The notes: generated by a model not told the origin, from the letters alone. 64,000 nucleotides of DNA from a virus (IMGVR_UViG_3300042396_000723:32185-96184); one strand, 5' to 3'; shown: positions 44,590-64,000, counted from the first letter of the stretch. Translations and numbers: made by a program.

Positions 44590-45555
44590 ATGTATAAAAA
44601 GATGACACCAACAGAAACTTCAGTAAAATTAGCGATTGCACAAGTCTTGTCAATGCCTTCTGTTTTTAACGCACCTCTTTACGTCTTGGATTTTAACATT
44701 GACGAAAAAGGGACGGTATCAGGAAGGTTTAGAGATGCTGCTAGACCCCGTGTATTTAGCTATGAGATTGCAGACGATGGAATAACCTTTAGTCCCTTTG
44801 TCCCTGGAAGAATGGATAGCAGTGACTGGAAAGTAGAAGACTGGGAGAAGTTTTCAGATGGCTATTCGTTTAGGATTGACGCAGGGATGCAAAAACGAAC
44901 CGACAAGCCAAAATGTAATCCGGCTGTTTCTTTTTCTTGTGGAAAGGCTTGTGTTAGTTTAAAAAAGAAATGCAAAACAGATCCTCAAGATCCGACTTCT
45001 GTAGCCAAGAAAGAAAAATTAAAAGCTGTTATTAAAGAGGTTACAGTTACCGACAAGACGAGCAAAATTAAAGTCAGTAAGGATAAATCTAGTAAGCCCA
45101 AAGCCAATAAATTGATCAATGACCTAGAACCCTTAGAGCCATTAAACACCTCTCGGACACCCACTGAAACCGTGTTACCTGAGCTAAGTTCTAACAATGT
45201 TGTTAAGGGTCTTGGTGGTAAAGTGGGCAGAGGAAAATATTCAGGCGATGCGGGTAGGGATTTTGAAGATACTGGCAAGATGATGAACTACCCACTAAAA
45301 AGCGTTGTAGCCACAAAGGACATGAAAGGGAAGGAAAAAGAAGTGGCAGACGTAGCAAAAATGTTGAAAGAATCCGAGAGAAATTGGCTCCCTGTTTATG
45401 TCAAAGAAGTTAGACCTTACGAGTATGAAGTTGTCGGAAATCATTTGACCCATGCAGCAGCAATAAAAGCAGGGTTTGAGAGGATTTGGACTATTCCGGT
45501 TGATTCAGATCCGGCTACTCTCAAACAGATTCAAATGTTAACAAACGGTAATTAA
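44590..45555 (+). CDS. modular family member A: conserved N-domain, 4-Cys linker, ParB/Srx-like C-terminus (tentative)
   Basis: N-domain (KLAIAQVLSMP...GRFRDAARPRVFSYEI...GYSFRIDA) and KPKCNPAVSFSCGKACVSLKKKCKTDPQD shared with the paralogs; C-terminus LPVYVKEV...YEVVGNHLTHAAAIKAGFERIWTIPV resembles ParB-like domains. Confidence 0.5.
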   Translation: MYKKMTPTETSVKLAIAQVLSMPSVFNAPLYVLDFNIDEKGTVSGRFRDAARPRVFSYEIADDGITFSPFVPGRMDSSDWKVEDWEKFSDGYSFRIDAGMQKRTDKPKCNPAVSFSCGKACVSLKKKCKTDPQDPTSVAKKEKLKAVIKEVTVTDKTSKIKVSKDKSSKPKANKLINDLEPLEPLNTSRTPTETVLPELSSNNVVKGLGGKVGRGKYSGDAGRDFEDTGKMMNYPLKSVVATKDMKGKEKEVADVAKMLKESERNWLPVYVKEVRPYEYEVVGNHLTHAAAIKAGFERIWTIPVDSDPATLKQIQMLTNGN

Positions 45556-45596
45556 TTCCTGTGTTTATTTTACAATCTTATAAATTAAGATTTGAT

Positions 45597-45672
45597 GCTC
45601 CGCCAACAGAAATCCAGGCGAAATTAGCGATCGCCAAAGTACATCTCAATATTGGTAGAAGTGAACTTAATT
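45597..45672 (+). pseudogene. decayed remnant of the family N-domain start
   Basis: One frame reads APPTEIQAKLAIAKVHLNIGRSELN then stop, matching the paralog N-domain opening (APTExQMKLxIAQxLSM...) but truncated. Confidence 0.35.
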
Positions 45673-45723
45673 AAGCAAAAACAAAGTACAATAGACTCAT
45701 CGCATTAAAAAGGAAAATCAATC

Positions 45724-45948
45724 ATGAAAGCTAAAAAAACTGCTGTTGAAGGACAGAAGAAAATTAAAACCGTTCCCCCTGCTGTTGTAGATGAAGATGA
45801 GGATGTTTTAGGGGAAGGGGAGACATTGCAGGAATTTGACAAGAGAATGGAGAAAAAATATCCGAAAAGAAGTTATGACGATTTGACAGAAGAAGAAAAA
45901 CGCGAACGTGCCAAACGTTTTGTAGCTCAAGGGCCGGAAGACTGGTAA
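45724..45948 (+). CDS. hypothetical small charged protein
   Basis: 74 aa, Lys/Glu-rich, between family members A and B. Confidence 0.3.
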   Translation: MKAKKTAVEGQKKIKTVPPAVVDEDEDVLGEGETLQEFDKRMEKKYPKRSYDDLTEEEKRERAKRFVAQGPEDW

Positions 45949-45997
45949 ACTCCCCAGCCCGCACCCGTACAAAAAAATTTAGTTTATCTCAAAAACA

Positions 45998-48900
45998 ATG
46001 GTCACAACCTTAAACCGTCAAAATCCCCGTCGCCTTGATGCTGCTCCTACGGAAGTGCAGATGAAACTTGGTATTTCTCAAGTTTTGTCGATGCCATTTG
46101 CCTACAACTCTCCGGTTATCGTTCTGGATTTTGAAGTAGGCAATAAAAACATCATCAAGGGACGGTTTAAGGATGCCATTAGATCCCGTGTTTTTGAGTT
46201 TGAGATTGGGGATTCTATCACGTTCAAGCCGTTCACCTGGAGGCGAACGGATAGCGACGTTGACCCGATGGCATGGGAAGACTTCTCTAAAGGGTATTGC
46301 TACCGATTCGATGCAGTCAAGACCGTCAGAAAGGAAAAACCTAAGTGTGGCAATACTTCTTATAACTGCGGTAAAGCCTGCATTGGCTTAAACAAGAATT
46401 GCAAATCAGATCCCCCCGATAAACCGTCCCAGGAGAAAGTTGATAAACTCAGAGCCGCGGCAGGGGAGTTTAAAGCTGTTCAGGGCGATCCAACCAAGAA
46501 GCAAGAGGATAATAAGTTAACGCCAAAACCACAGGAAGTTAAGGAAGTCGCGCCCACCCCCTCTCCCGATAAAGCAGAAGTCCCTGTCACCGACCTTGCT
46601 AAACAGCCACCTGTTGCCTTAAAAATTGGTAAAAAATCAGTCAACCTAAAAGACGACCTTGATTCCTACAAAGATTTAAGAATAACCGCCGATCCCGTTT
46701 TAGGTTGGCAAGTTATCAATAAGAATGGGAACGTACTGAGAGAACCGCCCAAGGGCAACACGGCTCCAAGTCATAGATTCAAGAAAAGAGAGCAGGCTGA
46801 AAAGTTTGCTAACGATGTGATGACACGGGTTGAGAAGTTGCAGAAGGCTCAACCAAAACCGGATGCTGATGTAAGTGACTCTGATAAAAGGTCATTTGAA
46901 AGTCTTTACACCACAAAATTATCATCCGCCCAACAGTTGCTTAACTTAGAAAAAAACGCAAAAATAGCGCGAATATCTCCCAGTGAAGATCAAAAAAATT
47001 ATGACAAAAAACAACCCGACCTCAATATTGATTCGGGGCCAGGAATAATGGAAGGTTGGAGGACTGCGAAACCAGACGGATCTGTCCAGGGAATCCCTTG
47101 GTCTGTCAAGGCGGAGGGTCAAGAAAAGTCACGGGCTATCGTGGGTGCTAGATTAACGGATCATCCAGCCAGCCCTAATTTAAAAAGACTCAGGTTATAC
47201 GACGCAGACGGACGTAATGAGACAATTGACTTCAAAAAGGGTGATAGAAACGCATCTCTTAGGGCTAGAAGACTTGTTAGAGAAATCGCACAAGGAAAGT
47301 CTCAAGAGATGGAATCTGGCGACATAAAAGCGTTGATTGAGGGAGGTAAAGAGGGTTTAGCTAAAAGAAAAGTGGAAAAGGCAAGATTAGCTGCTGAAGA
47401 CAAGCAATTTAAAGCAGCCTTAGATGATTATTTAAAATCAAAAAACCTAACAAGAGAAAGCATTAAAGGTTTGACCGATATCGGAATGGACGATCTTATC
47501 GAAAAAGTTGAGAAATACCAGAAATCACGATCTCAAACCCCCAATTCAGCAGGGGATAAGGGTGCGGGGGGTAAAACGTTTGACCTAAATGATTTATGGC
47601 GACAAACCGCCGACGCTGCTTATTCTAAAAACAAAGATGGTGTCTCAAAAAATCTTGAGCAATGGAAGGAAGTTGTAAAAAAATTAGAGTCAGGAGAAGG
47701 GATCTCTAAAGACGTTAACTTAAACGAATACGAAAAGTTAATGGATAATTTAGAAAAAAAATTAGTCCTCGATCCCAAAGATCCGTCTAATGTTGAATTT
47801 AAAAAGATTACGGGATCTATTTCTAAGATTCTTAGTAAAGCAGGCAGTCTCAACCCGTTAACACAAGAAGACCTAGAAAAAGCTCACCCTAACTTTAGAC
47901 CAATCATGCAACGAATTAATAAAACCGTTGCTAAGGATTATGAATTATTTGACAAAAAAGAGCGAGTTCAAAAAGAGTTAAATAGCCTAAAACAAGAAAA
48001 ATCTTATAACGAGGCTGTGATATTAAATAATTCAAAACGATTCCGAGAAATAGGTATTAATAATAACGAGGTAGAAATTCAAAGACTTTCCAAGAAAAAA
48101 CCGAGCGATTCAGTTGAGGTTAGAAATCCTGTCTCAAATTTACCAGAAAGGACTATTTCGGCATCCAAACGGATTAAGGAACTTCAAGATGAAATTGGGG
48201 AATTGAATAATAGTGAAAAAGCTAAAATAGAAGAAGACAGGGCTAGAAAAGAAATAGCCCGATTGCAAAGCCCAATGAAGGATGCAGAGAGTAGAATAAA
48301 CGCCATTTTAGACGAGAAGAAAAAATTAAGGGAATCTCGCGGCGGATCTAGTTCACAATCAGAACCCAAGCAAACCCCAAATTCAGTAGGGGTTGATGGT
48401 GCGGGGGGTAAATCAGTTGATCAACAATATAAGGATATAATTGCTAAGTCGAAAGATCCAAAGGGAACAGAGGAAGTTTTATCGTCAGCATTAAGAGGTG
48501 GGTTTGGTGACTTTGAAAGAAAAAATTATAACGAATATTCAACCGCTATAAAATCTGGGACTGTTCCAAAAGGAATGGGGAACTATTATCAAAAACAAGT
48601 CGACAAATATAAACCCATTATTGAGGCGGAAGATTTTATTAACGAAAGGAAGAAAAAAGCAATTAGTGGAGACTATGAAACAGAACAAGAAGCTGGGGTT
48701 TATGTTCTTAATAAATTAAAGCAAAAAGGCTACAAAGAACACGAATATTATGACAGTCCAGACTATGAAAAAGATTATGGAAAATTGGTGGGGGTAATGA
48801 AATCTGTTAAACTTCCTCCGCCGTTGTCTGGTATCGTCCCCGGTAAAGAATTAAAACAGACATTAACTCCGGGTGACAAACTACTTGTTAAAGAGGATAC

Positions 48901-49282
48901 TTATTCGTTAATGAGTAGTGGAAATACCCCTACTGGCTATCGAATAGTTGATGGTGGCGAAGTTTTAAAGGTTAATGTCAAGAATGTTAAAACCCGCGTT
49001 AGAGGCGAATACATGGGGAAACCCTACGAGAACGAGCCGTCTCTCGCTCTTGATAAAGTTACCCACGTCATCCGAGATGGTAAACGTTACAAGGTAGATG
49101 ATTCTGATAGATCCCCCAATGACTTAAAGTCGGAATCCTCCAAATCCCAGAAAGCAGTAAAACAAAAGGCAGTAAAACAGAAAGCAATAAAAGTTCAAGG
49201 GGAGCGATCGCAAAAACAAGAATCCCCTCTAATTCCGAAAGAGGAAATAGTTAAAGATGCTCCAATACTGATGTTAAGGTAA
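45998..49282 (+). CDS. modular family member B: N-domain, 4-Cys linker, long Lys/Glu-rich helical C-terminal region
   Basis: 1094 aa; N-domain and KPKCGNTSYNCGKACIGLNKNCKSDPPD shared with paralogs; C-terminal region has internal repeats (SAGDKGAGGKTFD / SVGVDGAGGKSVD; QKAVKQKAVKQKAIK). Confidence 0.5.
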   Translation: MVTTLNRQNPRRLDAAPTEVQMKLGISQVLSMPFAYNSPVIVLDFEVGNKNIIKGRFKDAIRSRVFEFEIGDSITFKPFTWRRTDSDVDPMAWEDFSKGYCYRFDAVKTVRKEKPKCGNTSYNCGKACIGLNKNCKSDPPDKPSQEKVDKLRAAAGEFKAVQGDPTKKQEDNKLTPKPQEVKEVAPTPSPDKAEVPVTDLAKQPPVALKIGKKSVNLKDDLDSYKDLRITADPVLGWQVINKNGNVLREPPKGNTAPSHRFKKREQAEKFANDVMTRVEKLQKAQPKPDADVSDSDKRSFESLYTTKLSSAQQLLNLEKNAKIARISPSEDQKNYDKKQPDLNIDSGPGIMEGWRTAKPDGSVQGIPWSVKAEGQEKSRAIVGARLTDHPASPNLKRLRLYDADGRNETIDFKKGDRNASLRARRLVREIAQGKSQEMESGDIKALIEGGKEGLAKRKVEKARLAAEDKQFKAALDDYLKSKNLTRESIKGLTDIGMDDLIEKVEKYQKSRSQTPNSAGDKGAGGKTFDLNDLWRQTADAAYSKNKDGVSKNLEQWKEVVKKLESGEGISKDVNLNEYEKLMDNLEKKLVLDPKDPSNVEFKKITGSISKILSKAGSLNPLTQEDLEKAHPNFRPIMQRINKTVAKDYELFDKKERVQKELNSLKQEKSYNEAVILNNSKRFREIGINNNEVEIQRLSKKKPSDSVEVRNPVSNLPERTISASKRIKELQDEIGELNNSEKAKIEEDRARKEIARLQSPMKDAESRINAILDEKKKLRESRGGSSSQSEPKQTPNSVGVDGAGGKSVDQQYKDIIAKSKDPKGTEEVLSSALRGGFGDFERKNYNEYSTAIKSGTVPKGMGNYYQKQVDKYKPIIEAEDFINERKKKAISGDYETEQEAGVYVLNKLKQKGYKEHEYYDSPDYEKDYGKLVGVMKSVKLPPPLSGIVPGKELKQTLTPGDKLLVKEDTYSLMSSGNTPTGYRIVDGGEVLKVNVKNVKTRVRGEYMGKPYENEPSLALDKVTHVIRDGKRYKVDDSDRSPNDLKSESSKSQKAVKQKAVKQKAIKVQGERSQKQESPLIPKEEIVKDAPILMLR

Positions 49283-49457
49283 CAGATAGAGATGGAATTA
49301 TTCTTGTGGAAGCCGAAGAAGTATAGAAAATTAACAATAAATTAGTGGTTTTGCTTCTGTTTTGCCCAAAATAAAACTGTTATAATTAATAATAACAAAC
49401 GCCTCTCGCGGTGCGCTAACACCCAGAGGCAGTAGATCCTATCCAAGAGGAACCACA

Positions 49458-51160: not shown

Positions 51161-52675
51161 ATGGTTGAAATCAGGCTTGATGCTCCAGCTAAATTTAGGG
51201 TAATCAGAACTGATGATGGTCGCCTCCATTGTGAGGGGTCTTTTTGTCGTGATGGGGTGTTGGAATATCGTCAGCCTGATGGCTCCATAGTCCACGAACT
51301 CAGGAGACCGGAAACCAATGCAGAACTAGCCACAGTGGAGAGTTTTAAGCTCCTCCCCCTGGTAATTGAACATCCCCATGTTGGGCTTCTTAATAGCGAA
51401 AGTTATAAGGATTACGCAGTCGGGATGACTGATTCTTCTGCTTATTACAACAAGGCTGAAGGGGTGATCGAAGGCTTGGTGTCGTTTTTTGATGCTAAAG
51501 CGATCGCCCTAATTGATTCAAGGGAAAAGGAACAGTTGTCTGCGGGATATACCTGCGATATCAAACAAGGGGCAGGGGTATGGAATGGTCAACACTACGA
51601 CAGAGAACAGATTAATGTTCGTGCTAACCATTTGGCTTTAACGAGCCGAGGAAGGGCAGGAGAAGATGCCCGTCTCCGATTAGATAGTGCTGCGGGGATT
51701 GGGCAAGCTGTTGCAGGGCAAGCTGTTGAAAACCCTAGTAACCCCAACAAAACCAAAGATAATGGAGATAATGAACAGCGCATGGCAATAATTAGATGCG
51801 ATGGAGTCGAATATTCAGGAATCCCTGAAGTTTTCGCTTCTATTAGTGGTACTCGATTCCGTGAATTAAAAGAATTAAAGGAACGCCACGATTCGCTTGT
51901 TACACGGTTTGACGCTACGATTCGGGAGAATCGGAAGCTAGAAGCCGCACAAGAGAACTACCAGTTTCGGTTGGATAACCTGGAAATCATTGTGGACAAT
52001 GCTGACAATGTCCTTGGTGAATTAGGTTATTACCGGAACGACATGGGGCAATACGTCCGTGTTGATGGGGGCAAAAAGAAAATGATGTCTCTTGTTCCCG
52101 AAGATGAAGAAATGATGGAAGATGAGGACAATGAAGATGAAGAAATGATGGAAGATGAGGTTATGGAAGAAAAAGAAACCATGACTTCCAGAAAGAAAAA
52201 AAAGTCCAAACCTCGTGCTGATGGCGACGATGAAGGCGAGAGTGATTACCGGGGTGATTCAATCGGGGATCTGTTGGCGATTTGGAAGGAAGCCGACAGT
52301 TTGTTACCAGGGTTCTCTGACACTCGGTTTGATAGTGGCTTCTCCACTAGCGATATCAAGCGCACTTTGTTGGCTGAAATCGAACCCAATATGGATTTGA
52401 CGTTCCGATCCGATTCTTATGTAGACGGGGTTTTTGCCTACATTCAGGAGAATTATGATTCCTCCCCCACCGATCCAGGTGACGAAGAAGAAGGGGATGA
52501 CGAGGAGGAAGACGATGGAGACTCGGAGGAGTTTTCCCATCGCCTTGATTCGGTACTCAAAAGACCTGCTCAATCTACCTACGGAGATGAACTCACCGAA
52601 TGGGAAAGACGACGGGTAGATGCCTATAAGCAGCCTTTAACGATAGGAAAAACACGCACGGGGTTTACTAGATAA
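51161..52675 (+). CDS. capsid scaffolding / head maturation protein candidate
   Basis: 504 aa; acidic low-complexity C-terminal half (MMEDEDNEDEEMMEDEVMEE, DEEEGDDEEEDDGD) typical of scaffolding proteins; lies immediately upstream of capsid-like genes. Confidence 0.4.
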   Translation: MVEIRLDAPAKFRVIRTDDGRLHCEGSFCRDGVLEYRQPDGSIVHELRRPETNAELATVESFKLLPLVIEHPHVGLLNSESYKDYAVGMTDSSAYYNKAEGVIEGLVSFFDAKAIALIDSREKEQLSAGYTCDIKQGAGVWNGQHYDREQINVRANHLALTSRGRAGEDARLRLDSAAGIGQAVAGQAVENPSNPNKTKDNGDNEQRMAIIRCDGVEYSGIPEVFASISGTRFRELKELKERHDSLVTRFDATIRENRKLEAAQENYQFRLDNLEIIVDNADNVLGELGYYRNDMGQYVRVDGGKKKMMSLVPEDEEMMEDEDNEDEEMMEDEVMEEKETMTSRKKKKSKPRADGDDEGESDYRGDSIGDLLAIWKEADSLLPGFSDTRFDSGFSTSDIKRTLLAEIEPNMDLTFRSDSYVDGVFAYIQENYDSSPTDPGDEEEGDDEEEDDGDSEEFSHRLDSVLKRPAQSTYGDELTEWERRRVDAYKQPLTIGKTRTGFTR

Positions 52676-53530: not shown

Positions 53531-54484
53531 ATGATGAACTTTTCTGGGACTACAAGGTTAGATGCTGATGAAATCGGCACGTTCTTTGGCTCTCTGATGG
53601 ATTTAGAGGCTCAGATAGATAAGGAATTTGACCTTGCGGACTATCCTTTCGCTGCTGGAGTCATTTGCCCTCTGAATATCCAAAACAAGCCCTGGGCAAA
53701 AACCTGGGGGTATCGGTGGCTCCGCCACGTTGGGCAGTTCAAGTTAATCCGAAACTACACCACAGACCTTCCCGAAGTGGAACTGGTCTATGGCGAGATG
53801 AAGATGCCGATTCATAAATGGGGACAAGGCTATAGCGTCTCTGAGGATGATATCGCGGCTGTTAGTCGGATGGGCGAGAGTATTGAAGAAGACAAAATCT
53901 GGACAATTCAAGAAGCCGCACAACAAAAAATCAATCAGTTGGTGGCAAACGGGGATTTAGAAACAGGAATGCCCGGTTTCTTGAATCATCCCCAAGCACT
54001 GCGGTCTTATGCTCCCTTCCCTTTGAACGGGTCAGCAACATCACAGCAAAAACTGAGTGTATTGAATGATTGTGTTAATGCTCCGACTCGGCTGACCAAT
54101 AACCGAGAGAAGCCGGACACATTGTTGATGGATTCGGAAACTTACGAACACCTCTCCTCGGATATTATTCAAATCGGCACATCCGCATTGGATCGTACGG
54201 TGTTAGAGCATTTCTTAAAAGTCAACCCTAATATCAAAGAAGTCGGCGTTGTGTCCGAGATGGCTCCTGACTATTTAGAGTCGATTGGTTTAGCTCCCAC
54301 CCGCTTTATTCAGGCTTTCCGTCGAGATCCCAAAAAAGTCTCTGCTAAGATTTATCAACCGTTAAAGTGGACTGATACTCGCCCCATTGGTGTTGATTCT
54401 TTCTGGCGTGGTGCCAAGTTTAAGTTTGGGGGAATTGATCTCAAACGCCCATTCTCCATGCACGTTGTAGTATTACCTGAATAA
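53531..54484 (+). CDS. major capsid protein candidate
   Basis: 317 aa ORF downstream of the scaffold-like gene, with a strong RBS context; assignment by position and size. Confidence 0.4.
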   Translation: MMNFSGTTRLDADEIGTFFGSLMDLEAQIDKEFDLADYPFAAGVICPLNIQNKPWAKTWGYRWLRHVGQFKLIRNYTTDLPEVELVYGEMKMPIHKWGQGYSVSEDDIAAVSRMGESIEEDKIWTIQEAAQQKINQLVANGDLETGMPGFLNHPQALRSYAPFPLNGSATSQQKLSVLNDCVNAPTRLTNNREKPDTLLMDSETYEHLSSDIIQIGTSALDRTVLEHFLKVNPNIKEVGVVSEMAPDYLESIGLAPTRFIQAFRRDPKKVSAKIYQPLKWTDTRPIGVDSFWRGAKFKFGGIDLKRPFSMHVVVLPE

Positions 54485-55940: not shown

Positions 55941-57365
55941 ATGCTGAAATCAAAACCAAGTTCTTTGTATCGGGTTGATGAAGATGAAGTAGCAATGGGA
56001 AGTGGTGGGAGAGGAACTGCACCAACCGAAGCCCAAATGAAGCTATTTATTGCCCAAACTTTGTCAATGAACTTCGCCTATAACGCCCCAGTTGTTGTGC
56101 TTAAATTTGATGTTGCCGAGAATGGGAATATTGCCGGATTATTTAAAGATGCGGCACGTCCACGGATGTTTTCCTTTACCTTAGACGGGGAGTCCGTAAC
56201 TTATAAGCCTTACAAACCTGGTAAAATGGACAGCTTGGAATCAGACGAGGATGTCCAAGAATGGGAGGCATTTTCAGAGGGGTACGGGTTCCGCGTAGAT
56301 GCGGGGGTAGGGGGCAAAAAAAAGCCTCAATGCGTTAAGCCCACCGCTTACAATTGTGGGAGTGCCTGTATTAATGTGATGAAGGACTGTAAGACTAACG
56401 CCAAAGATGCAGTTTCTAAGGATAGGCTTAAAAAGTTGAAAGGTGTGGCGATGTCTTATTACAAGGAATTTGAGAAACTTGATAAGACAGAAAGAGGCAG
56501 TGACAAACAGAAGGGATTTGGCGACAAATCAAATCAAGCTAGTCGGAAAAGAGTTGAATTGATGGAGCAATCCAAAAGCAAAAAGGGGGTAAAGTCGGAC
56601 GAACCCCAGATCAAGCCCAAGGCAGAAAGTAAAAAGCCTTCTACTCAAAAATTATCAACACAGAAAACGGTAGAACCCGAAGTTAAAACCAAGCCAAACG
56701 TAGAACCTAAAAAGACGGAATCCAAGCCAAAGTCCAAAGCCAATCCCTTTTATAGTGACGAACCAATTAAGGATTATGAGACTTTTAAAAAGGAAATACC
56801 AAAAGAACTGGCTAGGTTTAATTTTGAATACAATATGGACGGGTTGATCCCTATTCCAAGAATGAGAGAGGAATTAAAAGGGAGAGTAAAAGCAGAGGAC
56901 TTTGATAAGTGGATGCTACAGTCTCAAGCCGATAATGATAATATTCGACTTAGTGAAGGGCAAAAGAAAATGCCAGGGGGGATAAAAACCGAACTAGGAA
57001 ACCACAGGGATAACATTCGATTTTTTGACAAAGAGGCTATGGAAAAAGCTAGGACTGAAACGAAAAGAAAACCCGGTCAAATAATAGATCCAAAAGAATT
57101 TGAAGACGTGGCAATGAAGTCCTTAACCGATCTTGATAAGGACGGGAAATATGGCAATCTCATCCCTATTCATGAACTCAGAAAAACCCTTGGCGACAAA
57201 GTAAGTCGAGGGGATTTCAATAATTTATTGATGGAAATGCAGGCAAATGACAAGGTTCAATTAATTGGGGGTCAAATGACAGATGCCACCCCAAAAAAAG
57301 TGGAGGACTCTGTTGTATCAGAGCTGGGGGCATATCGTTATTACGTTAAAATCCTCAAGGATTAA
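55941..57365 (+). CDS. modular family member C: N-domain, 4-Cys linker, duplicated C-terminal domain
   Basis: 474 aa; KPQCVKPTAYNCGSACINVMKDCKTNAKD; the C-terminus carries two related ~45-aa units (GLIPIPRMREELKGRVKAEDFDKWMLQSQADNDNIRL / GNLIPIHELRKTLGDKVSRGDFNNLLMEMQANDKVQL). Confidence 0.5.
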   Translation: MLKSKPSSLYRVDEDEVAMGSGGRGTAPTEAQMKLFIAQTLSMNFAYNAPVVVLKFDVAENGNIAGLFKDAARPRMFSFTLDGESVTYKPYKPGKMDSLESDEDVQEWEAFSEGYGFRVDAGVGGKKKPQCVKPTAYNCGSACINVMKDCKTNAKDAVSKDRLKKLKGVAMSYYKEFEKLDKTERGSDKQKGFGDKSNQASRKRVELMEQSKSKKGVKSDEPQIKPKAESKKPSTQKLSTQKTVEPEVKTKPNVEPKKTESKPKSKANPFYSDEPIKDYETFKKEIPKELARFNFEYNMDGLIPIPRMREELKGRVKAEDFDKWMLQSQADNDNIRLSEGQKKMPGGIKTELGNHRDNIRFFDKEAMEKARTETKRKPGQIIDPKEFEDVAMKSLTDLDKDGKYGNLIPIHELRKTLGDKVSRGDFNNLLMEMQANDKVQLIGGQMTDATPKKVEDSVVSELGAYRYYVKILKD

Positions 57366-57466: not shown

Positions 57467-59332
57467 ATGATCATAGAGACTAAATCAGCCCCAACAAAAG
57501 CTCAAATGCAAGCAGCGATCGCCCAGACTCTTGCTCTTCCTTTTGCCTATAACTCCCCAGTGGATGTGATGGACTTTAAGGTAGATGGCACGGGTAAAAT
57601 ATCAGGGCGATTCAAGGATTCTGCCCGTCCAAGGGTGTTTGATTTTGAGTTAGATGGAAATACCGTCAACTTCAAACCTTACACGACAGGACGTATGGAT
57701 TCGGACGATGCAGTGGAACAATGGGAGGAGTTCTCGTCAGGGTATTCCTATCGTTTTGATGCTAAGGCAAAAGCCAAGGCGAAAAGCAAGACAGGAGACT
57801 CCAAGAAACCCCAATGCGTTAAACCCACAGCATATAATTGCGGAAAAGCCTGTATAAATATTAATAATAATTGTAAATCCAACCCCGACGATGCTAACTC
57901 AAAGGATCGTTTAGAAAAACTGAAAGCTGCTGGTATTGATTACGCTAAAGAAACTAAGAAATCCACTCCTAAATCTACCGCAAAAACCAAGAAAGAGGTA
58001 GAAAAACCACCGGAAATAGATAAAACCCCTAAAATAGATAAAACCCCTGAAAAGATAGAGGGAAAGGCTACCGAGTCCAAATCCCTTAATTTAGTAGGAA
58101 AAGGGGATCACGAGTCCGTCCCCAAAGATGCGAATGAATACTATGAAGCAATGAAAACATCGGGCAATCCTATCTCTTATGACGATGCCATAAAGATTAC
58201 CGGAGCCGTTAGAGAGTGGACGGAGGATGCTTCTTATATTAGGGAATCTCAAAAAGCAGGGAAATACAGCATTATTGCCGACCGGATTAATGATTACGTT
58301 AAAAGTTCAACGCCATTCAAGGGCGAAATTTATCGAGGCATCTCCTTCGGATCAACAGATGAGGCTTTGAGTTGGGCTAAGGGAGATAGTGATGGGATAT
58401 TAGATAATCAGAATGCCCATGCTTCTTGGACTTCTAACTGGGATAAAGCCAGAAAGTTTGCTGGTAACAATTCGGTAAACGACTTTACATCGCAACCTGT
58501 CATTATCAAAACAAATAATAAGTCGGGTGCCTCCATCAAAAACCTAAGCAACATTGGCACAGAAGATGAGGTAGTGGTTGTCAAAGACACTCGCCATCGG
58601 GTTAAGAATGTTGTATACGAAGATGGTGTTTTGATCGTTGAGACAGAAGAAGTTTCTCCAGATGAGGGAAAGAAAGCGCCTGAACCATCACCAGAAATAA
58701 CTAAACCCCAAAAAGAATCCGAGGAAAAGGCAGTTAAACAACCCGAAAATAAACCCAAAAACCTTAATTTAGTGGGCAAAGGCGATCATGAATCCATGCC
58801 ATCAAGCCACAAAGAGTATTATAAAGCACTGAAAAAAGCAGGGGTCAATATTTCTGAGAAGGAGGCAGCAGCCACCACTACAGCCATCTATAAATGGACG
58901 AGGAATGCTAACGACATCCGAGCCGATCAAAAGGCAGGAGAGGAGAACGAAGATGCAAATCGAATCTCTAATTATGTCAGGAACTCAACCCCATACAAAG
59001 GCGAAGTTTACCGAGGGATTCACTTTGAAACCAAAGAGGAGGCTTTAAACTGGACTAAAGGCGACAAGGATGGAGTGCTAGATAATCAAGGTGCTCACGC
59101 CTCTTGGTCATCTAGCCTTAAAACAGCAGAAGAATTTTCAGACGATTTCTTTATTGAGGAAAAAAGATATCCTGTTGTCATTAAATCAATCAACAAATCA
59201 GGTGCTTCTATTAAGAATTTAAGCAACATCAAAGAAGAAGACGAGGTTATGGTTTTAAAGGATACTCGCCATCGGGTTAAAAGTGTCAGGGAAGAAAACG
59301 GACGGATTATTGTTGAAGCTGAGGAAGTATAG
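57467..59332 (+). CDS. modular family member D: N-domain, 4-Cys linker, two tandem ADP-ribosyltransferase-like domains
   Basis: 621 aa; each duplicated C-terminal unit has INDYV / ISNYV, YRG (KGEIYRGISF / KGEVYRGIHF), an STS-like HASWTS / HASWSS, and ExE followed by hydrophobics (TEDEVVVV / EEDEVMVL), matching the R-S-E ART motif order. Confidence 0.55.
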   Translation: MIIETKSAPTKAQMQAAIAQTLALPFAYNSPVDVMDFKVDGTGKISGRFKDSARPRVFDFELDGNTVNFKPYTTGRMDSDDAVEQWEEFSSGYSYRFDAKAKAKAKSKTGDSKKPQCVKPTAYNCGKACININNNCKSNPDDANSKDRLEKLKAAGIDYAKETKKSTPKSTAKTKKEVEKPPEIDKTPKIDKTPEKIEGKATESKSLNLVGKGDHESVPKDANEYYEAMKTSGNPISYDDAIKITGAVREWTEDASYIRESQKAGKYSIIADRINDYVKSSTPFKGEIYRGISFGSTDEALSWAKGDSDGILDNQNAHASWTSNWDKARKFAGNNSVNDFTSQPVIIKTNNKSGASIKNLSNIGTEDEVVVVKDTRHRVKNVVYEDGVLIVETEEVSPDEGKKAPEPSPEITKPQKESEEKAVKQPENKPKNLNLVGKGDHESMPSSHKEYYKALKKAGVNISEKEAAATTTAIYKWTRNANDIRADQKAGEENEDANRISNYVRNSTPYKGEVYRGIHFETKEEALNWTKGDKDGVLDNQGAHASWSSSLKTAEEFSDDFFIEEKRYPVVIKSINKSGASIKNLSNIKEEDEVMVLKDTRHRVKSVREENGRIIVEAEEV

Positions 59333-59343
59333 GAGATTTAACT

Positions 59344-59436
59344 ATGAGTTTAACGACTAGAAAAGATGCCATGCTAACGGAATCTCAGATGAAGTTGGCG
59401 ATCGCCCAGACTCTTGCCCTTCCTTTTATGTTCTGA
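59344..59436 (+). pseudogene. truncated N-domain remnant upstream of family member E
   Basis: Reads MSLTTRKDAMLTESQMKLAIAQTLALPFMF then stop; identical in pattern to the opening of members D and G but ends after ~30 codons, indicating a deletion of the rest of the N-domain. Confidence 0.4.
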
Positions 59437-59437
59437 A

Positions 59438-60532
59438 ATGAAAAAACCCCAATGCGTAAAGCCAACATCATATAACTGCGGAGCGGCTTGTATCAACGTT
59501 TCCAAATCTTGCCAACAAGTCCCTTCTGAATCTTTTGGGCGATCGCGTCTTCAGAAGTTAAAACAAATTGCTTCTATTTATGCGAAGCAAAACACAGCAA
59601 AATCTCAAAGACAAGGGGCTACGGCTAACAAGATCATAGGATCAATTGAAGAAAAAAGGAAAACTGAAGCGACATCTTTGGCACAAGACAGAAAAGTTAT
59701 TAACCAAGACCGTAGAAAAGCTAGGTTAAAAGCCGAAGCAAAAGCCAAGAGAGAGCAACTATTAAAGATGTATGAAGATGTTAGTAAAACGTCAACATCA
59801 AAAGGCAATGTCCCCAAACTTTTGAATACAGAAGCTCCTGACAGGGAGCTAACAAGGTTAAAAAATAAGTACGAAAAGCAATCGGTTGAAACGGCAAAGA
59901 CCAACCTACAAAAAGCCGAGAGAGCGCTAAGTAGTGCGCTTAAAACTATAGGGGAGATGAAACAGGAGTCTGATAAATTCCTAGAAGAAACCCGAAAACT
60001 GGTACAGGTAGACAAACCTACTAAATTAAACTCATCGGTCAAAACCGGAACCCCTAACGCCCATAAAAAAGGTGTTGAGGCGTTCCAAAAAATGATCTCA
60101 ATTCCAGGCTTGGACACTCCAGTTAGTATTGTGGAAACCCCTCCAGAAAGGAAGGGGAGAAGTTGCTACAAACCCAAGACAAATAATGTATTCATGGGTA
60201 ATTCCGACCCTGCCGTTGTAGTTCATGAGATGAGTCACTGGCTAGAGGAGAAAGTACCAGGAATCAGAGAGGAAGTTCAGGAGTTTTATAATAAGAGAAC
60301 CCAAGGCGAGAAAAATATTAAACTAAGTGAAGTTACTGGCAATAAAAACTATGGGGATAGAGAGGTTACAAAGGTTGATAAATGGTTAAATCCTTACATG
60401 GGCAAGGAATACAAAAACGCCTCTGAAATCCTTTCTATGGGAATGGAAATAATGTACCGCAACCCTGCTTATTTAGCCAAGAATGACCCCGAAATGTTCG
60501 ACTTTATTTATAGTGTTGTGAGGAGAGGATGA
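59438..60532 (+). CDS. modular family member E: 4-Cys linker plus HExxH domain, N-domain deleted
   Basis: Starts at ATG 59438 (MKKPQCVKPTSYNCGAACINVSKSC...); C-terminal VVVHEMSHWLE ... SMGMEIMYRNPAYLAKNDPEMFDFIYSVVRRG shared with F and G. Confidence 0.5.
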   Translation: MKKPQCVKPTSYNCGAACINVSKSCQQVPSESFGRSRLQKLKQIASIYAKQNTAKSQRQGATANKIIGSIEEKRKTEATSLAQDRKVINQDRRKARLKAEAKAKREQLLKMYEDVSKTSTSKGNVPKLLNTEAPDRELTRLKNKYEKQSVETAKTNLQKAERALSSALKTIGEMKQESDKFLEETRKLVQVDKPTKLNSSVKTGTPNAHKKGVEAFQKMISIPGLDTPVSIVETPPERKGRSCYKPKTNNVFMGNSDPAVVVHEMSHWLEEKVPGIREEVQEFYNKRTQGEKNIKLSEVTGNKNYGDREVTKVDKWLNPYMGKEYKNASEILSMGMEIMYRNPAYLAKNDPEMFDFIYSVVRRG

Positions 60533-61668
60533 TTAAATACAGAGAAGACAAGAGGGAAAAGAAAGCTCAATGCGTGAAGACTACTTCCTATAATTGCGGT
60601 CTATCTTGCATTAATGTTAAGAAAAATTGCAGGATAGTCCCGAATGATTCAAGGTCAAAGGATAGGCTTGAAAAGCTGAAAACAATGGGGATTGATTACG
60701 CTAAAATTAGACCCTCAAAGTCTAAAGTTAAGCCGACACCAACCCCTATTCCGGTCATTCCCGCGCCAGTGATACCCGCGCCAGTCGTAATGCCAGAACC
60801 CGAAGTTAAAGAGACTCCAGAGCAAAGGAAAGCGAGGTTACAAATAGAATCAAGAGTTGTTCGGCAACGACTCGTGGGGATGTATGATGATCTTGAGCAT
60901 GAAGAGAAAAGAAATCCAATCAAAGCCAATCAAAATGCCATAATAGCAATTAACGAAGAAAACCCCAAAAAGTTTTTAACTAGCAGGATAAAATTCTCTA
61001 ATTCAAGAGCGAAGGATTATATTAAAACAAATCCAGAAAAAGCTCAGACATATGTGGATGCTGCCAAAATCGACCTAGAACCTGCACTAGCTAAAGTTAA
61101 CGATCTTTTGGGTGAAGCCAGAAAATTAGTTGAAGTAAAGAATCCGTCATCATTTAATATAAAACAAAAAGGGGATAATATAATCCTTTACAAACACTTG
61201 TTAGATAAAGGAATTGACGCTTTTCAGAGGTTGGTCGATGTACCAAAATTGAGAAGTCCTGTCTCCATCGTAGTAACAGAACCATTGGGAAGCAGAAGCT
61301 CTTATTCTGACGCTGCAAAGAAAATCACACTAGGAACTGATGACCCGTCTGCCATTGTCCATGAGTTAGCGCATTGGTTGGATTTGTCTGACAATGGGGT
61401 CAAAAAAGAAGTTTTAGAATTTTACAATAAAAGAACGGAGGGAGAAAAAACGGTAAAGTTAAGTGATGTTAGCAAAAACCCATATAGTAATGATGAAGTA
61501 ACTAAAGTTGATAAGTGGTTAAATCTTTATATGGGAAAAGTTTATCCTGACAAGTCAACGGAAATCCTCTCAATGGGTTTAGAATTAATGTATAAGAACC
61601 CAGTATATCTAGCAAAAAAAGACCCCGAAATGTTTGACTTTATTTACTCAGTAGTTAGGAGAGGTTAG
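60529..61668 (+). CDS. modular family member F: 4-Cys linker plus HExxH domain, no N-domain
   Basis: 379 aa; AQCVKTTSYNCGLSCINVKKNCRIVPND; Pro-rich PVIPAPVIPAPVV tract; C-terminal IVHELAHWLD ... SMGLELMYKNPVYLAKKDPEMFDFIYSVVRRG; its ATG overlaps the E stop. Confidence 0.5.
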   Translation: MIKYREDKREKKAQCVKTTSYNCGLSCINVKKNCRIVPNDSRSKDRLEKLKTMGIDYAKIRPSKSKVKPTPTPIPVIPAPVIPAPVVMPEPEVKETPEQRKARLQIESRVVRQRLVGMYDDLEHEEKRNPIKANQNAIIAINEENPKKFLTSRIKFSNSRAKDYIKTNPEKAQTYVDAAKIDLEPALAKVNDLLGEARKLVEVKNPSSFNIKQKGDNIILYKHLLDKGIDAFQRLVDVPKLRSPVSIVVTEPLGSRSSYSDAAKKITLGTDDPSAIVHELAHWLDLSDNGVKKEVLEFYNKRTEGEKTVKLSDVSKNPYSNDEVTKVDKWLNLYMGKVYPDKSTEILSMGLELMYKNPVYLAKKDPEMFDFIYSVVRRG

Positions 61669-61669
61669 C

Positions 61670-61945
61670 ATGGCTTATCGCGTTAAAATCAATGGTGTAG
61701 TGGCAATTGTTGAAAATGGCGTTTGGTCATCCTCAACACCCCATTATGCCGAAATTCTAAATAACGTCTTGGCAATGGAGAAATTGGCAGCCATAGACCC
61801 TGATTCGCCTTTTTTCTGGCTTAATTCCCCTGCAACACCCGACCCAGATTGGTTAATTGCCACCGAAATAGCCAAAACCTTTGAGGGGACGGTGATGGAT
61901 CAACCGATTACTCCTCTGACAACAGACGAAGATATTATTTATTAA
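61670..61945 (+). CDS. hypothetical small protein following an HExxH-domain gene
   Basis: 91 aa ORF starting 2 nt after the F stop; possible accessory or immunity-type partner (speculative). Confidence 0.3.
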   Translation: MAYRVKINGVVAIVENGVWSSSTPHYAEILNNVLAMEKLAAIDPDSPFFWLNSPATPDPDWLIATEIAKTFEGTVMDQPITPLTTDEDIIY

Positions 61946-61949
61946 TGCG

Positions 61950-63401
61950 ATGAAGTTCAATCCAAATGCTACGGTTTCCGAGACTCAAATGAAGTTAGCG
62001 ATCGCTCAAACGTTATCGCTCCCATTTGCCTATAATTCGCCCGTGATGGTGTTGGATTTTGATTTAGGGGATAAGGATAGTAACAAGATAACAGGGCGAT
62101 TCAAAGACTTATCCCGTCCCCGCGTGTTCAGTTTTGAGATAACCAAGAAGTCAGTTGTCTATAAACCCTTCGTGGCTCGAACTGATAGCACGGAATTGGA
62201 TGCTAAATCGTGGGAAGATTTCTCGAAAGGTTACTCTTATCGAGTTGATAGTCAAGGCTTGAGAAAGGAAAAAGCTCAATGTGTCAAGCCGACTTCTTAT
62301 AACTGTGGGAGTATTTGTATTAATATTAAGAAAAACTGTAAGGCTAATGCTGATGATGACTTTTCGGAAGAACGGATTGACAAGCTATTTAAGTTAAGAA
62401 GATATTATACAGACAAATTATTGGAAATAAATCCAAGTACACAAAGAGAAGAAGAGACTCTCCTTGAAGAAAAAGTCCGAGAAGTCTCTCGACTACTTAA
62501 ACCATACAATGATCGTCAAAAAGAGCTAGAGAAACAAAAACAGGAGCAAATCAAAGAACAAAGAAGCCGTCAAATAGAAGTATTGAAGTCCGAAGCTCAA
62601 TCGAAAAGAACGCAATTAATGGCATTGTCAAATGAATTAGATAGCAATCAAAAAATATCTTCTGATGCAAGAATTAAGGCATCAGTTCACCTTGAATTCG
62701 ATGATCCAGAAAGCGGAATAAAAAGGGATCTTAAATTTGCTGAAAGTGTTGCTCTAAAACTGAATAAAAATGGACAAAAAGAAGCCGAGATATTCTCCCA
62801 AAATGAGTTAAAAATTGCCATAGAAGCAAAAAAAGAAATTGATAATATTTTAGACAAAGCTCGTGAGTTGATAAAGGTTGAGAAACCAGTTGATATTGGT
62901 GTAGCGTTTGATTCTAAGAATGTAAGAAAACCAGATGAATATAAGAAAGGGCTTGAGATGTTTTCTGAAATGATTTCGGTTCCCAATTTAAAAGAAACAT
63001 TAGAAGTTAAAGAGACAGATTCGGGAAGAAGTTATTACAAACAGGGAGCTATACACATGGCAAATCCAGATCCGGCGACAATCATCCACGAATCAGGGCA
63101 TTGGCTAGAGGCTCGGAATATTCAGGTAAGGAGAGAAGTTAAAGAATTTTATAATAAAAGGACAGAAGGAGAGCCTATTGTCAAATTGAGCGAATCAACG
63201 GGTGATCTCTATGAAGACTATGAAGTTACCAAGGTCGATAAATGGCTTCATCATTACATAGGGAAGTTTTATGGAAACCAGCCTAGTTCCGAGGTTCTGT
63301 CAATGGGATTAGAGATGATGTATAAAAACCCCATTTACTTAGCCAAAAACGATCCCGAAATGTTTGATTTTATCTATTCTGTAGTTAGGCAAGGGAATTG
63401 A
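61950..63401 (+). CDS. modular family member G: N-domain, 4-Cys linker, coiled-coil, HExxH domain
   Basis: 483 aa; KLAIAQTLSLPFAYNSPVMVLDF...GRFKDLSRPRVFSFEI; AQCVKPTSYNCGSICINIKKNCKANADD; C-terminal IIHESGHWLE ... SMGLEMMYKNPIYLAKNDPEMFDFIYSVVRQG. Confidence 0.5.
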   Translation: MKFNPNATVSETQMKLAIAQTLSLPFAYNSPVMVLDFDLGDKDSNKITGRFKDLSRPRVFSFEITKKSVVYKPFVARTDSTELDAKSWEDFSKGYSYRVDSQGLRKEKAQCVKPTSYNCGSICINIKKNCKANADDDFSEERIDKLFKLRRYYTDKLLEINPSTQREEETLLEEKVREVSRLLKPYNDRQKELEKQKQEQIKEQRSRQIEVLKSEAQSKRTQLMALSNELDSNQKISSDARIKASVHLEFDDPESGIKRDLKFAESVALKLNKNGQKEAEIFSQNELKIAIEAKKEIDNILDKARELIKVEKPVDIGVAFDSKNVRKPDEYKKGLEMFSEMISVPNLKETLEVKETDSGRSYYKQGAIHMANPDPATIIHESGHWLEARNIQVRREVKEFYNKRTEGEPIVKLSESTGDLYEDYEVTKVDKWLHHYIGKFYGNQPSSEVLSMGLEMMYKNPIYLAKNDPEMFDFIYSVVRQGN

Positions 63402-63474
63402 AGTTAATGGGTCAATCAAAGCAACAAAGCAAACGCTAAAATGTCTTCCTTGGAGAAAATATAGGAGGGTGGGA

Positions 63475-64000
63475 ATGCTAATAGATAAATCAACTGAAGA
63501 AGACTATCTCAATGGTCGTACTTTTGCTCAGGGTTATTTTTTGCGGATTGACGCAGCTAGAGCCGACGCAGCTAGAGCCACCCCAAAATGCAAGAATGGG
63601 GTTTCTTATAGCTGTGGGAAGTCCTGTATTAGCCTTAAGAAAAATTGCAAGTCAGAACCGCAAGATGAAAAAGGGAAACAAATTCTTAAGGCAGTAAAAT
63701 CCAAGGCTTCTGAGTTTGCTAAAACAAAAGCAAAAACACCCAAAGCTACTCCAGTTAAGCCTACTGAAATTAAGCCAGATGTAGAAGCTCCTCCCCCTCC
63801 CCAAGGTGATATAAAGGTTAAGGCATCTAAATCAAAAACCAAGGTATCAAAACCCGTCGCAGTGGAAGCAGAGAAAAAAGCGACTCCTGCCAAAACCAAA
63901 AAAGCAAAACCCTCAACAAAGCTTAGTGAAGTTAGCAAAGAGCAGAAGAAAGTGGAGGCGATCGCAAAACCATCCAAAACAATAGGAGATGGAACTCATG
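63475..64000 (+). CDS. modular family member H (partial, runs off window): truncated N-domain, 4-Cys linker, Lys-rich region
   Basis: ATG at 63475 preceded by AGGAGG; FAQGYFLRIDAARADAARATPKCKNGVSYSCGKSCISLKKNCKSEPQD; contains a 15-bp tandem duplication (GACGCAGCTAGAGCC x2); no stop before the window end. Confidence 0.45.
   Translation, partial: MLIDKSTEEDYLNGRTFAQGYFLRIDAARADAARATPKCKNGVSYSCGKSCISLKKNCKSEPQDEKGKQILKAVKSKASEFAKTKAKTPKATPVKPTEIKPDVEAPPPPQGDIKVKASKSKTKVSKPVAVEAEKKATPAKTKKAKPSTKLSEVSKEQKKVEAIAKPSKTIGDGTH

Follow-up and report, generated by a model that had tools for sequence, protein, structure and literature searches.

Paralogous modular proteins in the structural gene cluster of a Planktothrix phage PaV-LD relative: a probable virion-borne effector family

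In the present study, we analysed a 64,000-nt stretch of viral DNA (hereafter, the window) that is closely related to Planktothrix phage PaV-LD (DNA identity of 95.9%) and found that at least eight paralogous genes within its structural cluster encode modular proteins, in which shared N-terminal elements precede C-terminal domains that differ from gene to gene. We consider it probable that these genes represent an effector family built into the virion, the products of which enter the host cell together with the DNA. The shared N-terminal module would act as the handle for incorporation or delivery, whereas the variable C-terminal ends would constitute the payload, namely, arginine-type ADP-ribosyltransferases (ARTs), a ParB/Srx-like domain, tandem winged-helix-like units, and a lethal-factor-like zinc protease accompanied by a small acidic partner. 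The members are as follows:

44590..45555, plus strand: member 1 (g44590); N-domain, Cys4 (nt 44914-44973), putative ParB/Srx-like C-domain (BLASTP, tblastn; homologues P0008-P0010 match ParB_N)
45998..49282, plus strand: member 2 (g45998); N-domain, Cys4 (nt 46346-46402), then a repetitive, Lys/Glu-rich helical region of ~950 aa (BLASTP; internal repeat D8)
55941..57365, plus strand: member 3 (g55941); N-domain, Cys4 (nt 56331-56390), a spacer rich in Lys and Pro, and a pair of winged-helix-like units of ~45 aa each (BLASTP, motif)
57467..59332, plus strand: member 4 (g57467); N-domain, Cys4 (nt 57815-57874), R-S-ExE ADP-ribosyltransferase domain in two tandem copies (Pfam ART)
59438..60532, plus strand: member 5 (g59438); Cys4 (nt 59453-59512), coiled coil, zincin (HEMSH, nt 60224), N-domain deleted (phrog_33618, 7e-208)
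60529..61668, plus strand: member 6 (g60529); begins at the R-x-D motif; Cys4 (nt 60571-60630), coiled coil, zincin (HELAH, nt 61360) (BLASTP)
61950..63401, plus strand: member 7 (g61950); all elements present, namely N-domain, Cys4 (nt 62280-62339), helical bundle, and zincin (HESGH, nt 63087)
63475..64000, plus strand: member 8, cut by the end of the window; the final ~25 aa of the N-domain, then Cys4 and a spacer rich in Lys and Pro (tblastn, PaV-LD comparison)

Five of the products (g44590, g45998, g55941, g57467, and g61950) have their N-terminal ~150 aa in common (41-55% identity, E 5e-38 to 8e-56 in all-vs-all BLASTP), including an alpha+beta N-domain of ~95 aa (pairwise E 1e-38 to 1e-56); g59438 and g60529 match these five over the Cys linker only (E 1e-7 to 3e-20), and tblastn detects a partial copy at 63397-63717, in the region of member 8. 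The Cys4 motif, C-x7-8-C-x3-C-x6-C preceded by R-x-D-A, occurs in each of the eight genes and does not vary among distant relatives either. Thus, BLASTP, tblastn, and the motif check agree with the initial annotation, which had described at least eight paralogous modular proteins with a common N-domain and/or a four-cysteine linker. The N-domain, which it took as the targeting element, is shared by five genes, but the near-universal element is Cys4, since two zincin members and two CL131 proteins detected in virions lack the N-domain. The common order is an optional N-domain, an F-S-x-G-Y...R-x-D-A stretch, Cys4 in the form of a basic knuckle (KKPxC-x7-8-C-G-x2-C-I-x5-C; putatively metal-binding), a conserved helix (S-K-D-R-L-x-K-L-K), a spacer that is either Lys/Pro/Glu-rich or a coiled coil, and the variable effector domain. 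Neither Pfam nor NCBIfam contains a model for the N-domain/Cys4 module, in line with the earlier view that the architecture is not a named family. The only matches in the PHROG library are phrog_16619 ("minor head protein"; E down to 5e-248) and phrog_33618 (unknown function; E down to 2e-223); both evidently contain PaV-LD paralogues, but they are automatic clusters for which no domain structure or mechanism is described, "minor head protein" being an annotation label.

The payloads are supported to different degrees. The product of g57467 matches Pfam ART PF01129 above the cut-off (25.2 bits versus 22.3, E 1.2e-5), and both copies retain intact YRG(I), HASW[TS]S, and EDE(V) motifs, which substantiates the tandem ADP-ribosyltransferase-like pair recognised at the outset. 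Likewise, the HExxH zincin-like domain can now be described as an anthrax-lethal-factor-like zincin in three genes: g59438, g60529, and g61950 have a C-terminal HExxH domain of ~175 aa in common (BLASTP E 1e-75 to 1e-91), with the HExxH helix and a downstream Glu ligand on a zincin fold (lethal factor/ATLF/PPEP M34, MtfA M90 type). The enzymatic activities and targets of the ART and zincin domains are predictions. For the proposed ParB-like domain of member 1, the evidence comes from close homologues of like architecture: P0009 scores 30.1 bits against ParB_N (PF02195), above the cut-off of 26.3, and P0010 and P0008 score 24.4 and 16.0 bits, but g44590 itself gives no match. The duplicated ~45-aa unit is visible in the g55941 sequence as originally noted, and a family search with it returned no match; a Pfam search with g45998 was equally without a match.

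Two degenerate copies and two small ORFs accompany the intact genes:

45582..45672, plus strand: decayed N-domain start, reading ...RFDAPPTEIQAKLAIAKV... (translation; equals PaV-LD ORF059R)
45724..45948, plus strand: 74-aa ORF ending in ...RFVAQGPEDW, most plausibly what is left of the C-terminal tail of a decayed ART-type member
59359..59433, plus strand: remnant, with a frameshift, of the initial ~25 aa of an N-domain, belonging to truncated member 5 directly downstream (tblastn E 4e-6 to 1e-4)
61670..61945, plus strand: 91-aa acidic protein (pI 4.05), conserved downstream partner of a zincin member

Both decayed copies reported by the initial annotation are real, the first being missed by BLAST and read from the translation, and the second coinciding with DNA repeat D4, 81% identical to g57467. 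The small ORFs, proposed as accessory or immunity-type partners, fared differently. The last 20 aa of the 45724-45948 product match the C-termini of P0046 (N-domain, Cys4, ART, tail) and PaV-LD ORF067R, and a third copy of this tail follows ORF062R, which points to a decayed member rather than a partner. The 61670-61945 protein, by contrast, has homologues (35-36% identity) immediately 3' of a zincin member in L003 (12840-13094) and L004 (11530-11784), and is a conserved partner.

The array had been placed among portal-, scaffold-, and capsid-like genes, and Pfam and PHROG matches identify these neighbours:

41814..43802, plus strand: portal protein with a C-terminal InPase domain (Phage_portal_3 PF06381, 2.4e-44, aa 67-416; InPase PF18823, 5.2e-26, aa 507-630); 99.4% identical to PaV-LD ORF057R
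51161..52675, plus strand: fusion of a DUF2213 head maturation protease with a very acidic, scaffold-like tail (Pfam DUF2213, 5.6e-30; phrog_530, 4.9e-74); net charge -44
53531..54484, plus strand: major capsid protein (PF09950, 2.4e-26; phrog_264); 100% identical to PaV-LD ORF073R

The setting is conserved over considerable distances: the capsid proteins of L005 and of the related siphovirus vB_AphaS-CL131 (CL131) are only 33-35% identical to that of the window, yet members still lie 3' of the capsid/neck genes there, and in L003, three members directly follow the portal gene. The InPase domain connects the portal to the effector repertoire. It is carried by the portal here and, together with a fused MuF domain, by the CL131 portal, whereas in other phages it is joined to the N-domain module instead, N-terminal to the N-domain.

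Indirect support for packaging comes from CL131, in which ORF044, 045, 047, and 048 occupy the same genome position and carry the R-x-D-A/Cys4 module; the N-domain is found in ORF045 and in one unit of ORF048. Outside Cys4, the matches are weak (17-53 bits, with just 407 ORFs searched). All four proteins were detected by LC-MS/MS in purified virions, with 9 peptides for ORF044, 33 (123 PSMs) for ORF045, 14 for ORF047, and 105 (175 PSMs) for ORF048 (PMC6293099 Table S5). Because relatives are inside virus particles, the window proteins are probably injected into the host. Absence of all such proteins from virions had been named as evidence against delivery; four homologues are present, in the proteome of CL131 rather than of the window phage. 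The PaV-LD depositors, too, labelled ORF081R a "virion structural protein" and ORF085R a "minor virion protein", labels that may derive from BLAST rather than mass spectrometry. The virion data also make it very unlikely that the members are late intracellular proteins for host takeover or superinfection exclusion, or polymorphic toxin/immunity pairs, lying in the structural cluster by chance. Variable toxin-like C-domains behind a constant N-terminus do resemble polymorphic toxins (PMC5576092), and the small conserved ORF 3' of a zincin member could be read in the same way; however, the ART, ParB, and winged-helix members lack a downstream immunity-like gene, their sole candidate being the 45724-45948 remnant, and neither a secretion signal nor a MuF domain was found.

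Presence in the virion establishes neither residence in the head nor ejection, and the direct comparison with capsid proteins covered the product of g57467 only. The second block of members lies just upstream of the tape-measure gene, the usual place of tail genes: in PaV-LD, it is flanked by the neck genes on one side and by the tail-chaperone-like ORF087R and the tape-measure gene on the other, and its position is alike in CL131 and L005. Furthermore, CL131 ORF045 (123 PSMs for 453 aa) roughly equals the capsid protein (86 PSMs for 310 aa) in abundance per residue, which would fit a structural role too, and some members contain Gly/Ala-rich hydrophobic stretches after Cys4. The module could accordingly be a building block of the tail or neck, either residing in the tail lumen and exiting before the DNA with the tape measure or forming a tube- or sheath-like structure, with enzymes as occasional passengers. 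We regard this as unlikely: the first block and the L003 array adjoin the portal rather than tail genes, InPase alternates between the portal and the N-domain module, and most members carry C-terminal enzymes typical of injected effectors. As modelled, the N-domain is unlike the tail-tube fold, for which there is a separate candidate (g44147, a homologue of CL131 virion protein ORF030), and the tape measure has no Cys4. The members would reside in the head and not in the tail; even a tail-lumen position would still deliver the proteins, so that this alternative differs from a head-borne effector family in location more than in function.

Comparison with PaV-LD reveals that whole cassettes have been gained, lost, or replaced while the N-terminal part stayed constant. 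Member 1 is missing from PaV-LD (a ~975-bp indel), member 2 is a mosaic of ORF061R and ORF065R without their ART ends, and at the locus of member 7, PaV-LD keeps the N-domain only (ORF083R); member 6 is the orthologue of ORF081R, and the orthologue of member 8, ORF085R, has a C-terminal ART domain. Swapping of C-domains behind a constant N-domain, a check suggested by the initial annotation, is evident in member 3, the C-domain of which is a divergent allele of that of ORF078R (windowed identity of ~97% over the first 280 aa and ~45% beyond). Recombination in the shared 5' sequence may be the means by which cassettes are added, deleted, and exchanged between closely related phages. Payload cassettes are thus exchanged between 96%-identical phages whose structural proteins are 98-100% identical, which argues for arms-race functions rather than a packing role. 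This bears on another alternative, modelled on the T4 internal proteins or the phiKZ inner body, in which the members would be basic internal head proteins with a physical job, condensing or neutralising DNA or forming an inner core or scaffold remnant, with enzymes secondary. Most members are indeed basic (pI 9.1-9.6) and have Lys-rich spacers, as opposed to the acidic capsid proteins and the very acidic scaffold, some CL131 members are highly abundant, and g45998, devoid of an enzyme domain, has extended helical stretches of low complexity. Nevertheless, the rapid payload exchange and the intact catalytic motifs in both ART copies and all three zincins render this improbable. For delivery by the capsid or ejection route, as first proposed, the CL131 virion homologues, the polyvalent-protein-like repertoire, the InPase swap, and the cassette swaps are all favourable, if indirectly so.

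A profile search of 1.84 billion representatives (E<=1e-3) recovered 285 proteins, the N-domain/Cys4 module thereby defining 285 metagenomic clusters. Of those measuring 200 aa or more (138 members), 99 combine N-domain and Cys4, 97 of them in that order and 86 having the N-domain within the first 40 aa; Cys4 alone is found in 22 and several Cys4 modules in 12. Payloads recognised in 90 distant members comprise InPase (9), ParB_N (6), ADPrib_exo_Tox (5), ART (2), PARP (2), Pkinase (2), GNAT (2), and pentapeptide (1); one member has LPD1, and others have alpha/beta-hydrolase (lipase-like) matches. CL131 ORF048, P0065, P0100, and P0103 are multi-module polyproteins. Far more tentatively, we envisage a three-part extension that is possible but doubtful as a whole: the R-x-D-A/Cys4 knuckle, whether or not an N-domain accompanies it, would be a portable signal for virion loading and ejection, not described before, in a deep cyanophage lineage (marked by a DUF1073 portal, DUF2213 protease, and DUF2184 capsid); whatever protein follows this signal would be loaded and injected; and the repeated modules in the giant relatives would mark the sites at which a polyprotein is cut into individual effectors, possibly by the family's own zincin. 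If so, one could read directly from the arrays, as from a rapidly evolving catalogue, the anti-defence weapons aimed at bloom-forming cyanobacteria.

Conceptually, the array can be grouped with the effector proteins already known to be packaged in phage heads. T4 Alt (an ART), T4 IPI-III, and the Dar/Ddr proteins of P1 are head-packaged and injected to counter the host or its restriction systems, and their loci vary between related phages; the logic of a packaged effector is alike, with no sequence similarity to the members described here. The T4 capsid targeting sequence is a ~10-aa N-terminal peptide removed by the prohead protease, unlike the ~150-aa folded module with four invariant cysteines. 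P1 DdrB combines ParB with an MPTase (PMC5512222). Similar in content are the polyvalent proteins, which unite 2-15 different effector domains per polypeptide, have been proposed to be head-packaged and injected early, and were noted to be scarce in cyanobacteria (PMC5512222). The lethal-factor-like MPTase, ART, ParB, InPase, and, in relatives, LPD1 are common to both, as are portal-terminase phages and a position among morphogenesis genes, with packaging seen for the CL131 homologues. However, most window proteins have one payload type (g57467 carrying the same ART twice), about eight paralogues with the N-domain/Cys4 divide the valencies among them, and this module is absent from PMC5512222 and from the Pfam LPD models. 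Several different effector domains are nevertheless united in the relatives CL131 ORF048, P0065, and P0103. MuF (SPP1 gp7/Mu gp30) toxins similarly couple a constant, head-associated N-terminus to a variable C-terminal effector, often an ART, near the portal, in cassettes that recombine (PMC5576092). They differ in having one copy per genome rather than many paralogues and in their fold, the N-domain being a distinct, unmodelled one: no member matches MuF (PF04233) in Pfam at E<=0.1, and the CL131 MuF region has no match in the window. As to the downstream immunity gene of MuF toxins, a conserved small 3' gene is seen for a zincin member only, ORF 45724-45948 being a remnant. The array is probably the functional counterpart of polyvalent proteins and MuF-toxin fusions, with the valencies divided among separate genes behind one handle.

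The eight genes that the initial annotation had placed in a paralogous array with a common N-terminal part do form one family. In all-versus-all BLASTP comparisons, g44590, g45998, g55941, g57467 and g61950 (named, like all genes here, by start coordinate) are 41-55% identical to one another over their first ~150 aa (E 5e-38 to 8e-56), g59438 and g60529 resemble these five in the cysteine linker only, and g59438, g60529 and g61950 have a C-terminal HExxH domain in common (E 1e-75 to 1e-91). The motif C-x7-8-C-x3-C-x6-C (Cys4, preceded by R-x-D-A) is present in all eight genes, and N-terminal modules used as tblastn queries recovered all copies, with no match elsewhere in the 64 kb. Both decayed copies noticed earlier were also found. 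One, detected by tblastn, is a frame-shifted 25-aa remnant of the shared N-terminal domain (N-domain) at 59359-59433; since it abuts g59438, the latter is a member with an internally deleted N-domain. The other, at 45582-45672, reads ...RFDAPPTEIQAKLAIAKV... and equals ORF059R of the Planktothrix phage PaV-LD, and a partial copy at 63397-63717 is the counterpart of PaV-LD ORF085R, which ends in an ADP-ribosyltransferase (ART) domain.

Positions 44000-64000 match PaV-LD (NC_016564 / HQ683709, 95,299 bp) with 95.9% identity over 80% of their length, and at the protein level the structural genes reach 98-100% (portal 99.4%, protease/scaffold 98.4%, major capsid protein 100%). The portal-like, scaffold-like and capsid-like surroundings of the array were identified as the portal, a DUF2213 protease/scaffold and the major capsid protein, joined by a DUF4054 protein and a Mu-G-like completion protein. 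In the PaV-LD records nearly all genes of the array are labelled hypothetical, the exceptions being ORF081R ('virion structural protein') and ORF085R ('minor virion protein' or 'minor head protein'). The portal gene carries an additional domain:

41814-43802, portal protein with a C-terminal type I inorganic-pyrophosphatase-like domain (InPase) at aa 507-630 (5e-26)

InPase is another hallmark of phage polyvalent proteins (PMC5512222), and the 1393-aa portal of siphovirus vB_AphaS-CL131 (CL131) contains it together with a MuF domain.

Several further features of this region deserve mention. A tandem 33-nt repeat at 52100-52165 encodes EDEEMMEDED in the extremely acidic (net -44) C-terminal part of the protease/scaffold protein. 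The 25-nt repeat GATTTTCTTATATAGAAATTATTTT occurs exactly at 44049-44073, upstream of g44147, and at 51066-51090, upstream of the protease/scaffold gene g51161, whereas chance would produce no such repeat, and a third, weaker copy lies at 51122-51150; it may represent a phage late promoter or operator. Predicted promoters and terminators in the array were no more numerous than in shuffled sequence. Directly after the portal, g44147 (44147-44539) encodes a 130-aa acidic protein with 41% identity to CL131 ORF030, which was detected in virions and sits at the head of the CL131 tail gene block, making g44147 a candidate tail-tube protein in a phage that was formerly called tailless. PaV-LD also encodes a typical tape measure of 1584 aa. 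Between the two blocks of the array lies a KilA/Ant-like gene (49458-50186) that matches PaV-LD ORF064R in its C-terminal half alone (aa 119-242, 97%), the N-terminal half being unlike ORF064R; a paralogue of the C-terminal half lies on the opposite strand at 26579-27112 (minus strand, 55% identity).

Comparison with PaV-LD directly shows that cassettes change behind a constant handle, the N-domain plus Cys4. Relative to PaV-LD, g44590 is an indel of ~975 bp whose boundaries fall in the 5' portions of two N-domain copies, g45998 combines ORF061R and ORF065R as a mosaic, and g61950 is complete, its PaV-LD counterpart (ORF083R) consisting of the N-domain only. Identity between the product of g55941 and ORF078R is about 97% over 280 aa and drops to about 45% thereafter, and ORF062R, 065R, 066R, 067R, 068R and 084R have no counterpart in the window. 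Stretches of repeated DNA, 52-104 nt long and 63-81% identical, connect the copies. PaV-LD ORF065R, 066R and 067R, and likewise 061R and 062R, resemble a single gene for N-domain, Cys4, spacer, ART and tail that is split by frameshifts or stops (9257-12297 and 5038-8035 of the PaV-LD locus, L001); such splits could stem from genuine decay, from programmed frameshifting or from mistakes in the sequence of 2011.

The two small ORFs that had been proposed as accessory or immunity-type partners fared differently. The product of g45724 finishes with 20 aa (...RFVAQGPEDW) that recur at the very C-terminal end of P0046, a member with a complete N-domain, Cys4, ART and tail, as well as in PaV-LD ORF067R and in a third copy after ORF062R. 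Given these matches and the N-domain remnant that shortly precedes it, g45724 most plausibly represents what is left of the ends of an ART member that was deleted, and ORF 45724-45948 was rejected as an immunity gene. By contrast, g61670 (61670-61945; 91 aa, pI 4.05) has homologues at 35-36% identity right after the zincin member in the related loci L003 and L004. The two genes form a conserved pair, in which the small protein could be an inhibitor, chaperone or substrate of the protease.

The tandem ART-like pair in g57467 scores above the curated Pfam cut-off, with the catalytic Arg, S-x-S and E-x-E motifs kept in both copies. The C-terminal end of g44590, described as ParB-like, has no Pfam match of its own; the assignment is carried by homologues of the same architecture, which match ParB_N, one of them above the cut-off. 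The end of g55941 comprises two ~45-aa winged-helix-like units, g45998 contains ~950 aa of repetitive Lys/Glu-rich helix with no family match, and distant phages also contain proteins of the zincin type, with N-domain, Cys4, coil and zincin in succession.

Searching 1.84 billion representative proteins with a profile returned 285 matches at E<=1e-3, 122 of them at E<=1e-10. In a set of 138 members with 200 aa or more, 99 combine N-domain and Cys4 (97 in that order, 86 with the N-domain right at the start of the chain), 22 contain Cys4 alone, 8 the N-domain alone, and 12 several Cys4 modules per chain; the cysteines, G-x-F, Y-K-P, F-S-x-G-Y and R-x-D-A are kept down to about 25% identity. The payloads of 90 distant members include InPase (9), ParB_N (6), ART or PARP (9 hits), protein kinase (2), GNAT (2) and pentapeptide repeats (1), with the polyvalent-protein-specific domain LPD1 in one giant member and lipase-like hydrolases or DnaJ in others. 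Further members were found by Foldseek against viral models in Nodularia phages 2AV2 and kac65v161. Multiple copies also recur near the structural genes of other phages; a search for related loci with a narrow alignment returned two. In L003 (IMG/VR, 110 kb) three members come directly after the portal gene, one of them joining InPase, N-domain and Cys4, and a fourth lies upstream; L004 has three; and in L005 protease, capsid and neck genes precede three consecutive genes with four modules. With capsid proteins only 33-35% identical to the one in the window and portals at about 27%, these phages and CL131 are remote relatives, so that both the presence of several copies and their location are ancient traits of the lineage. 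In L005 (6879-9998 and 12989-19033), a DnaJ (J) domain occurs in one member, and after the array the expected place of the tape measure is taken by a 2014-aa protein that has no Pfam match.

The handle is undescribed: it has no Pfam or NCBIfam model and was not found in the literature checked. Scans of all members with both libraries left N-domain and Cys4 uncovered, PDB searches with single proteins and profiles gave nothing significant for the module, and Cys4 matched only conotoxins in the PDB, at chance level (E 3-5). The only library matches were the automatic PHROG clusters 16619 and 33618. Among isolated phages, tblastn with three different module sequences found PaV-LD only, CL131 being recovered solely by profile. 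In the AlphaFold2 model (mean pLDDT 70), residues 11-71 (pLDDT about 85) form a single helix against a four-stranded antiparallel sheet, followed by a low-confidence stretch containing the conserved W-E-x-F-S-x-G-Y...R-x-D-A motif and by four cysteines on short beta hairpins, then a helix.

Evidence on presence in the particle comes from purified CL131 virions, in which LC-MS/MS listed all four module-bearing proteins: ORF044 (9 peptides, 46% coverage), ORF045 (33 peptides, 123 PSMs), ORF047 (14 peptides) and ORF048 (105 peptides, 175 PSMs, 55% coverage) (PMC6293099 Table S5). That members are late proteins which are not packaged is quite improbable and, of three rival readings, the least compatible with these data. 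ORF044 and ORF047 have Cys4 and no N-domain; the N-domain is therefore dispensable for virion presence, and Cys4 is the common denominator. The earlier idea that the N-domain targets effectors to the capsid or ejection route was largely right in spirit, the common element being Cys4 instead. The four CL131 genes lie after the neck genes and before the tape measure, and ORF048 (1811 aa) contains at least four R-x-D-A/Cys4 units with lipase-like domains in between; a tail-associated structural role nonetheless seems unlikely to us. InPase is fused to the portal in the window and in CL131 and to the N-domain elsewhere, a link between the family and the portal region. Window members are mostly basic (pI 9.1-9.6), the capsid proteins acidic and the scaffold tail of net charge -44, a pattern that would fit co-assembly with the scaffold and later DNA association; we give a role as DNA-condensing internal proteins the same low probability as a tail role. 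On balance, we moderately favour virion-borne, probably injected effectors with a common incorporation or delivery module. Between InPase and MuF, aa ~785-842 of the CL131 portal (about nt 11130-11350 of its locus, L007) resemble the beta-sheet part of the N-domain (GNIFGEF...YKFGIKK...LTYKW...DS) at only 3.4 bits and a Foldseek E of 0.52, a lead and not a finding; a genuine match would provide a physical link between N-domain and portal.

The earliest weapons of a phage against host defences are the proteins that it injects along with its DNA. To our knowledge, few delivery handles have been recognised (MuF, portal fusions, the T4 targeting peptide and the P1 Dar system), and almost nothing is known of phage-host conflict in the toxic bloom formers Planktothrix, Aphanizomenon and Nodularia. 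The present handle spans at least 285 protein clusters and makes cargo recognisable by sequence alone, so that searches with it yield candidates for early effectors (ARTs, proteases, kinases, lipases, ParB-like proteins and DNA-mimic-like pentapeptide proteins) from phages of these three hosts. Should it prove portable, chosen proteins could be loaded into cyanophage particles.

On this reading, the family belongs in functional class with head-packaged effectors such as polyvalent proteins, MuF toxins, T4 Alt and internal proteins, and the P1 Dar system. The family lies outside the MuF group (PMC5576092), because neither a Pfam scan nor a search with the CL131 MuF region found a MuF domain in the window. 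Most members differ from strict polyvalent proteins in bearing a single payload each. Iyer et al. (PMC5512222) remarked that cyanobacteria are apparently poor in polyvalent proteins; the family may be their cyanophage counterpart, split into separate genes, and this apparent scarcity may be explained by the same functions being divided among paralogues.
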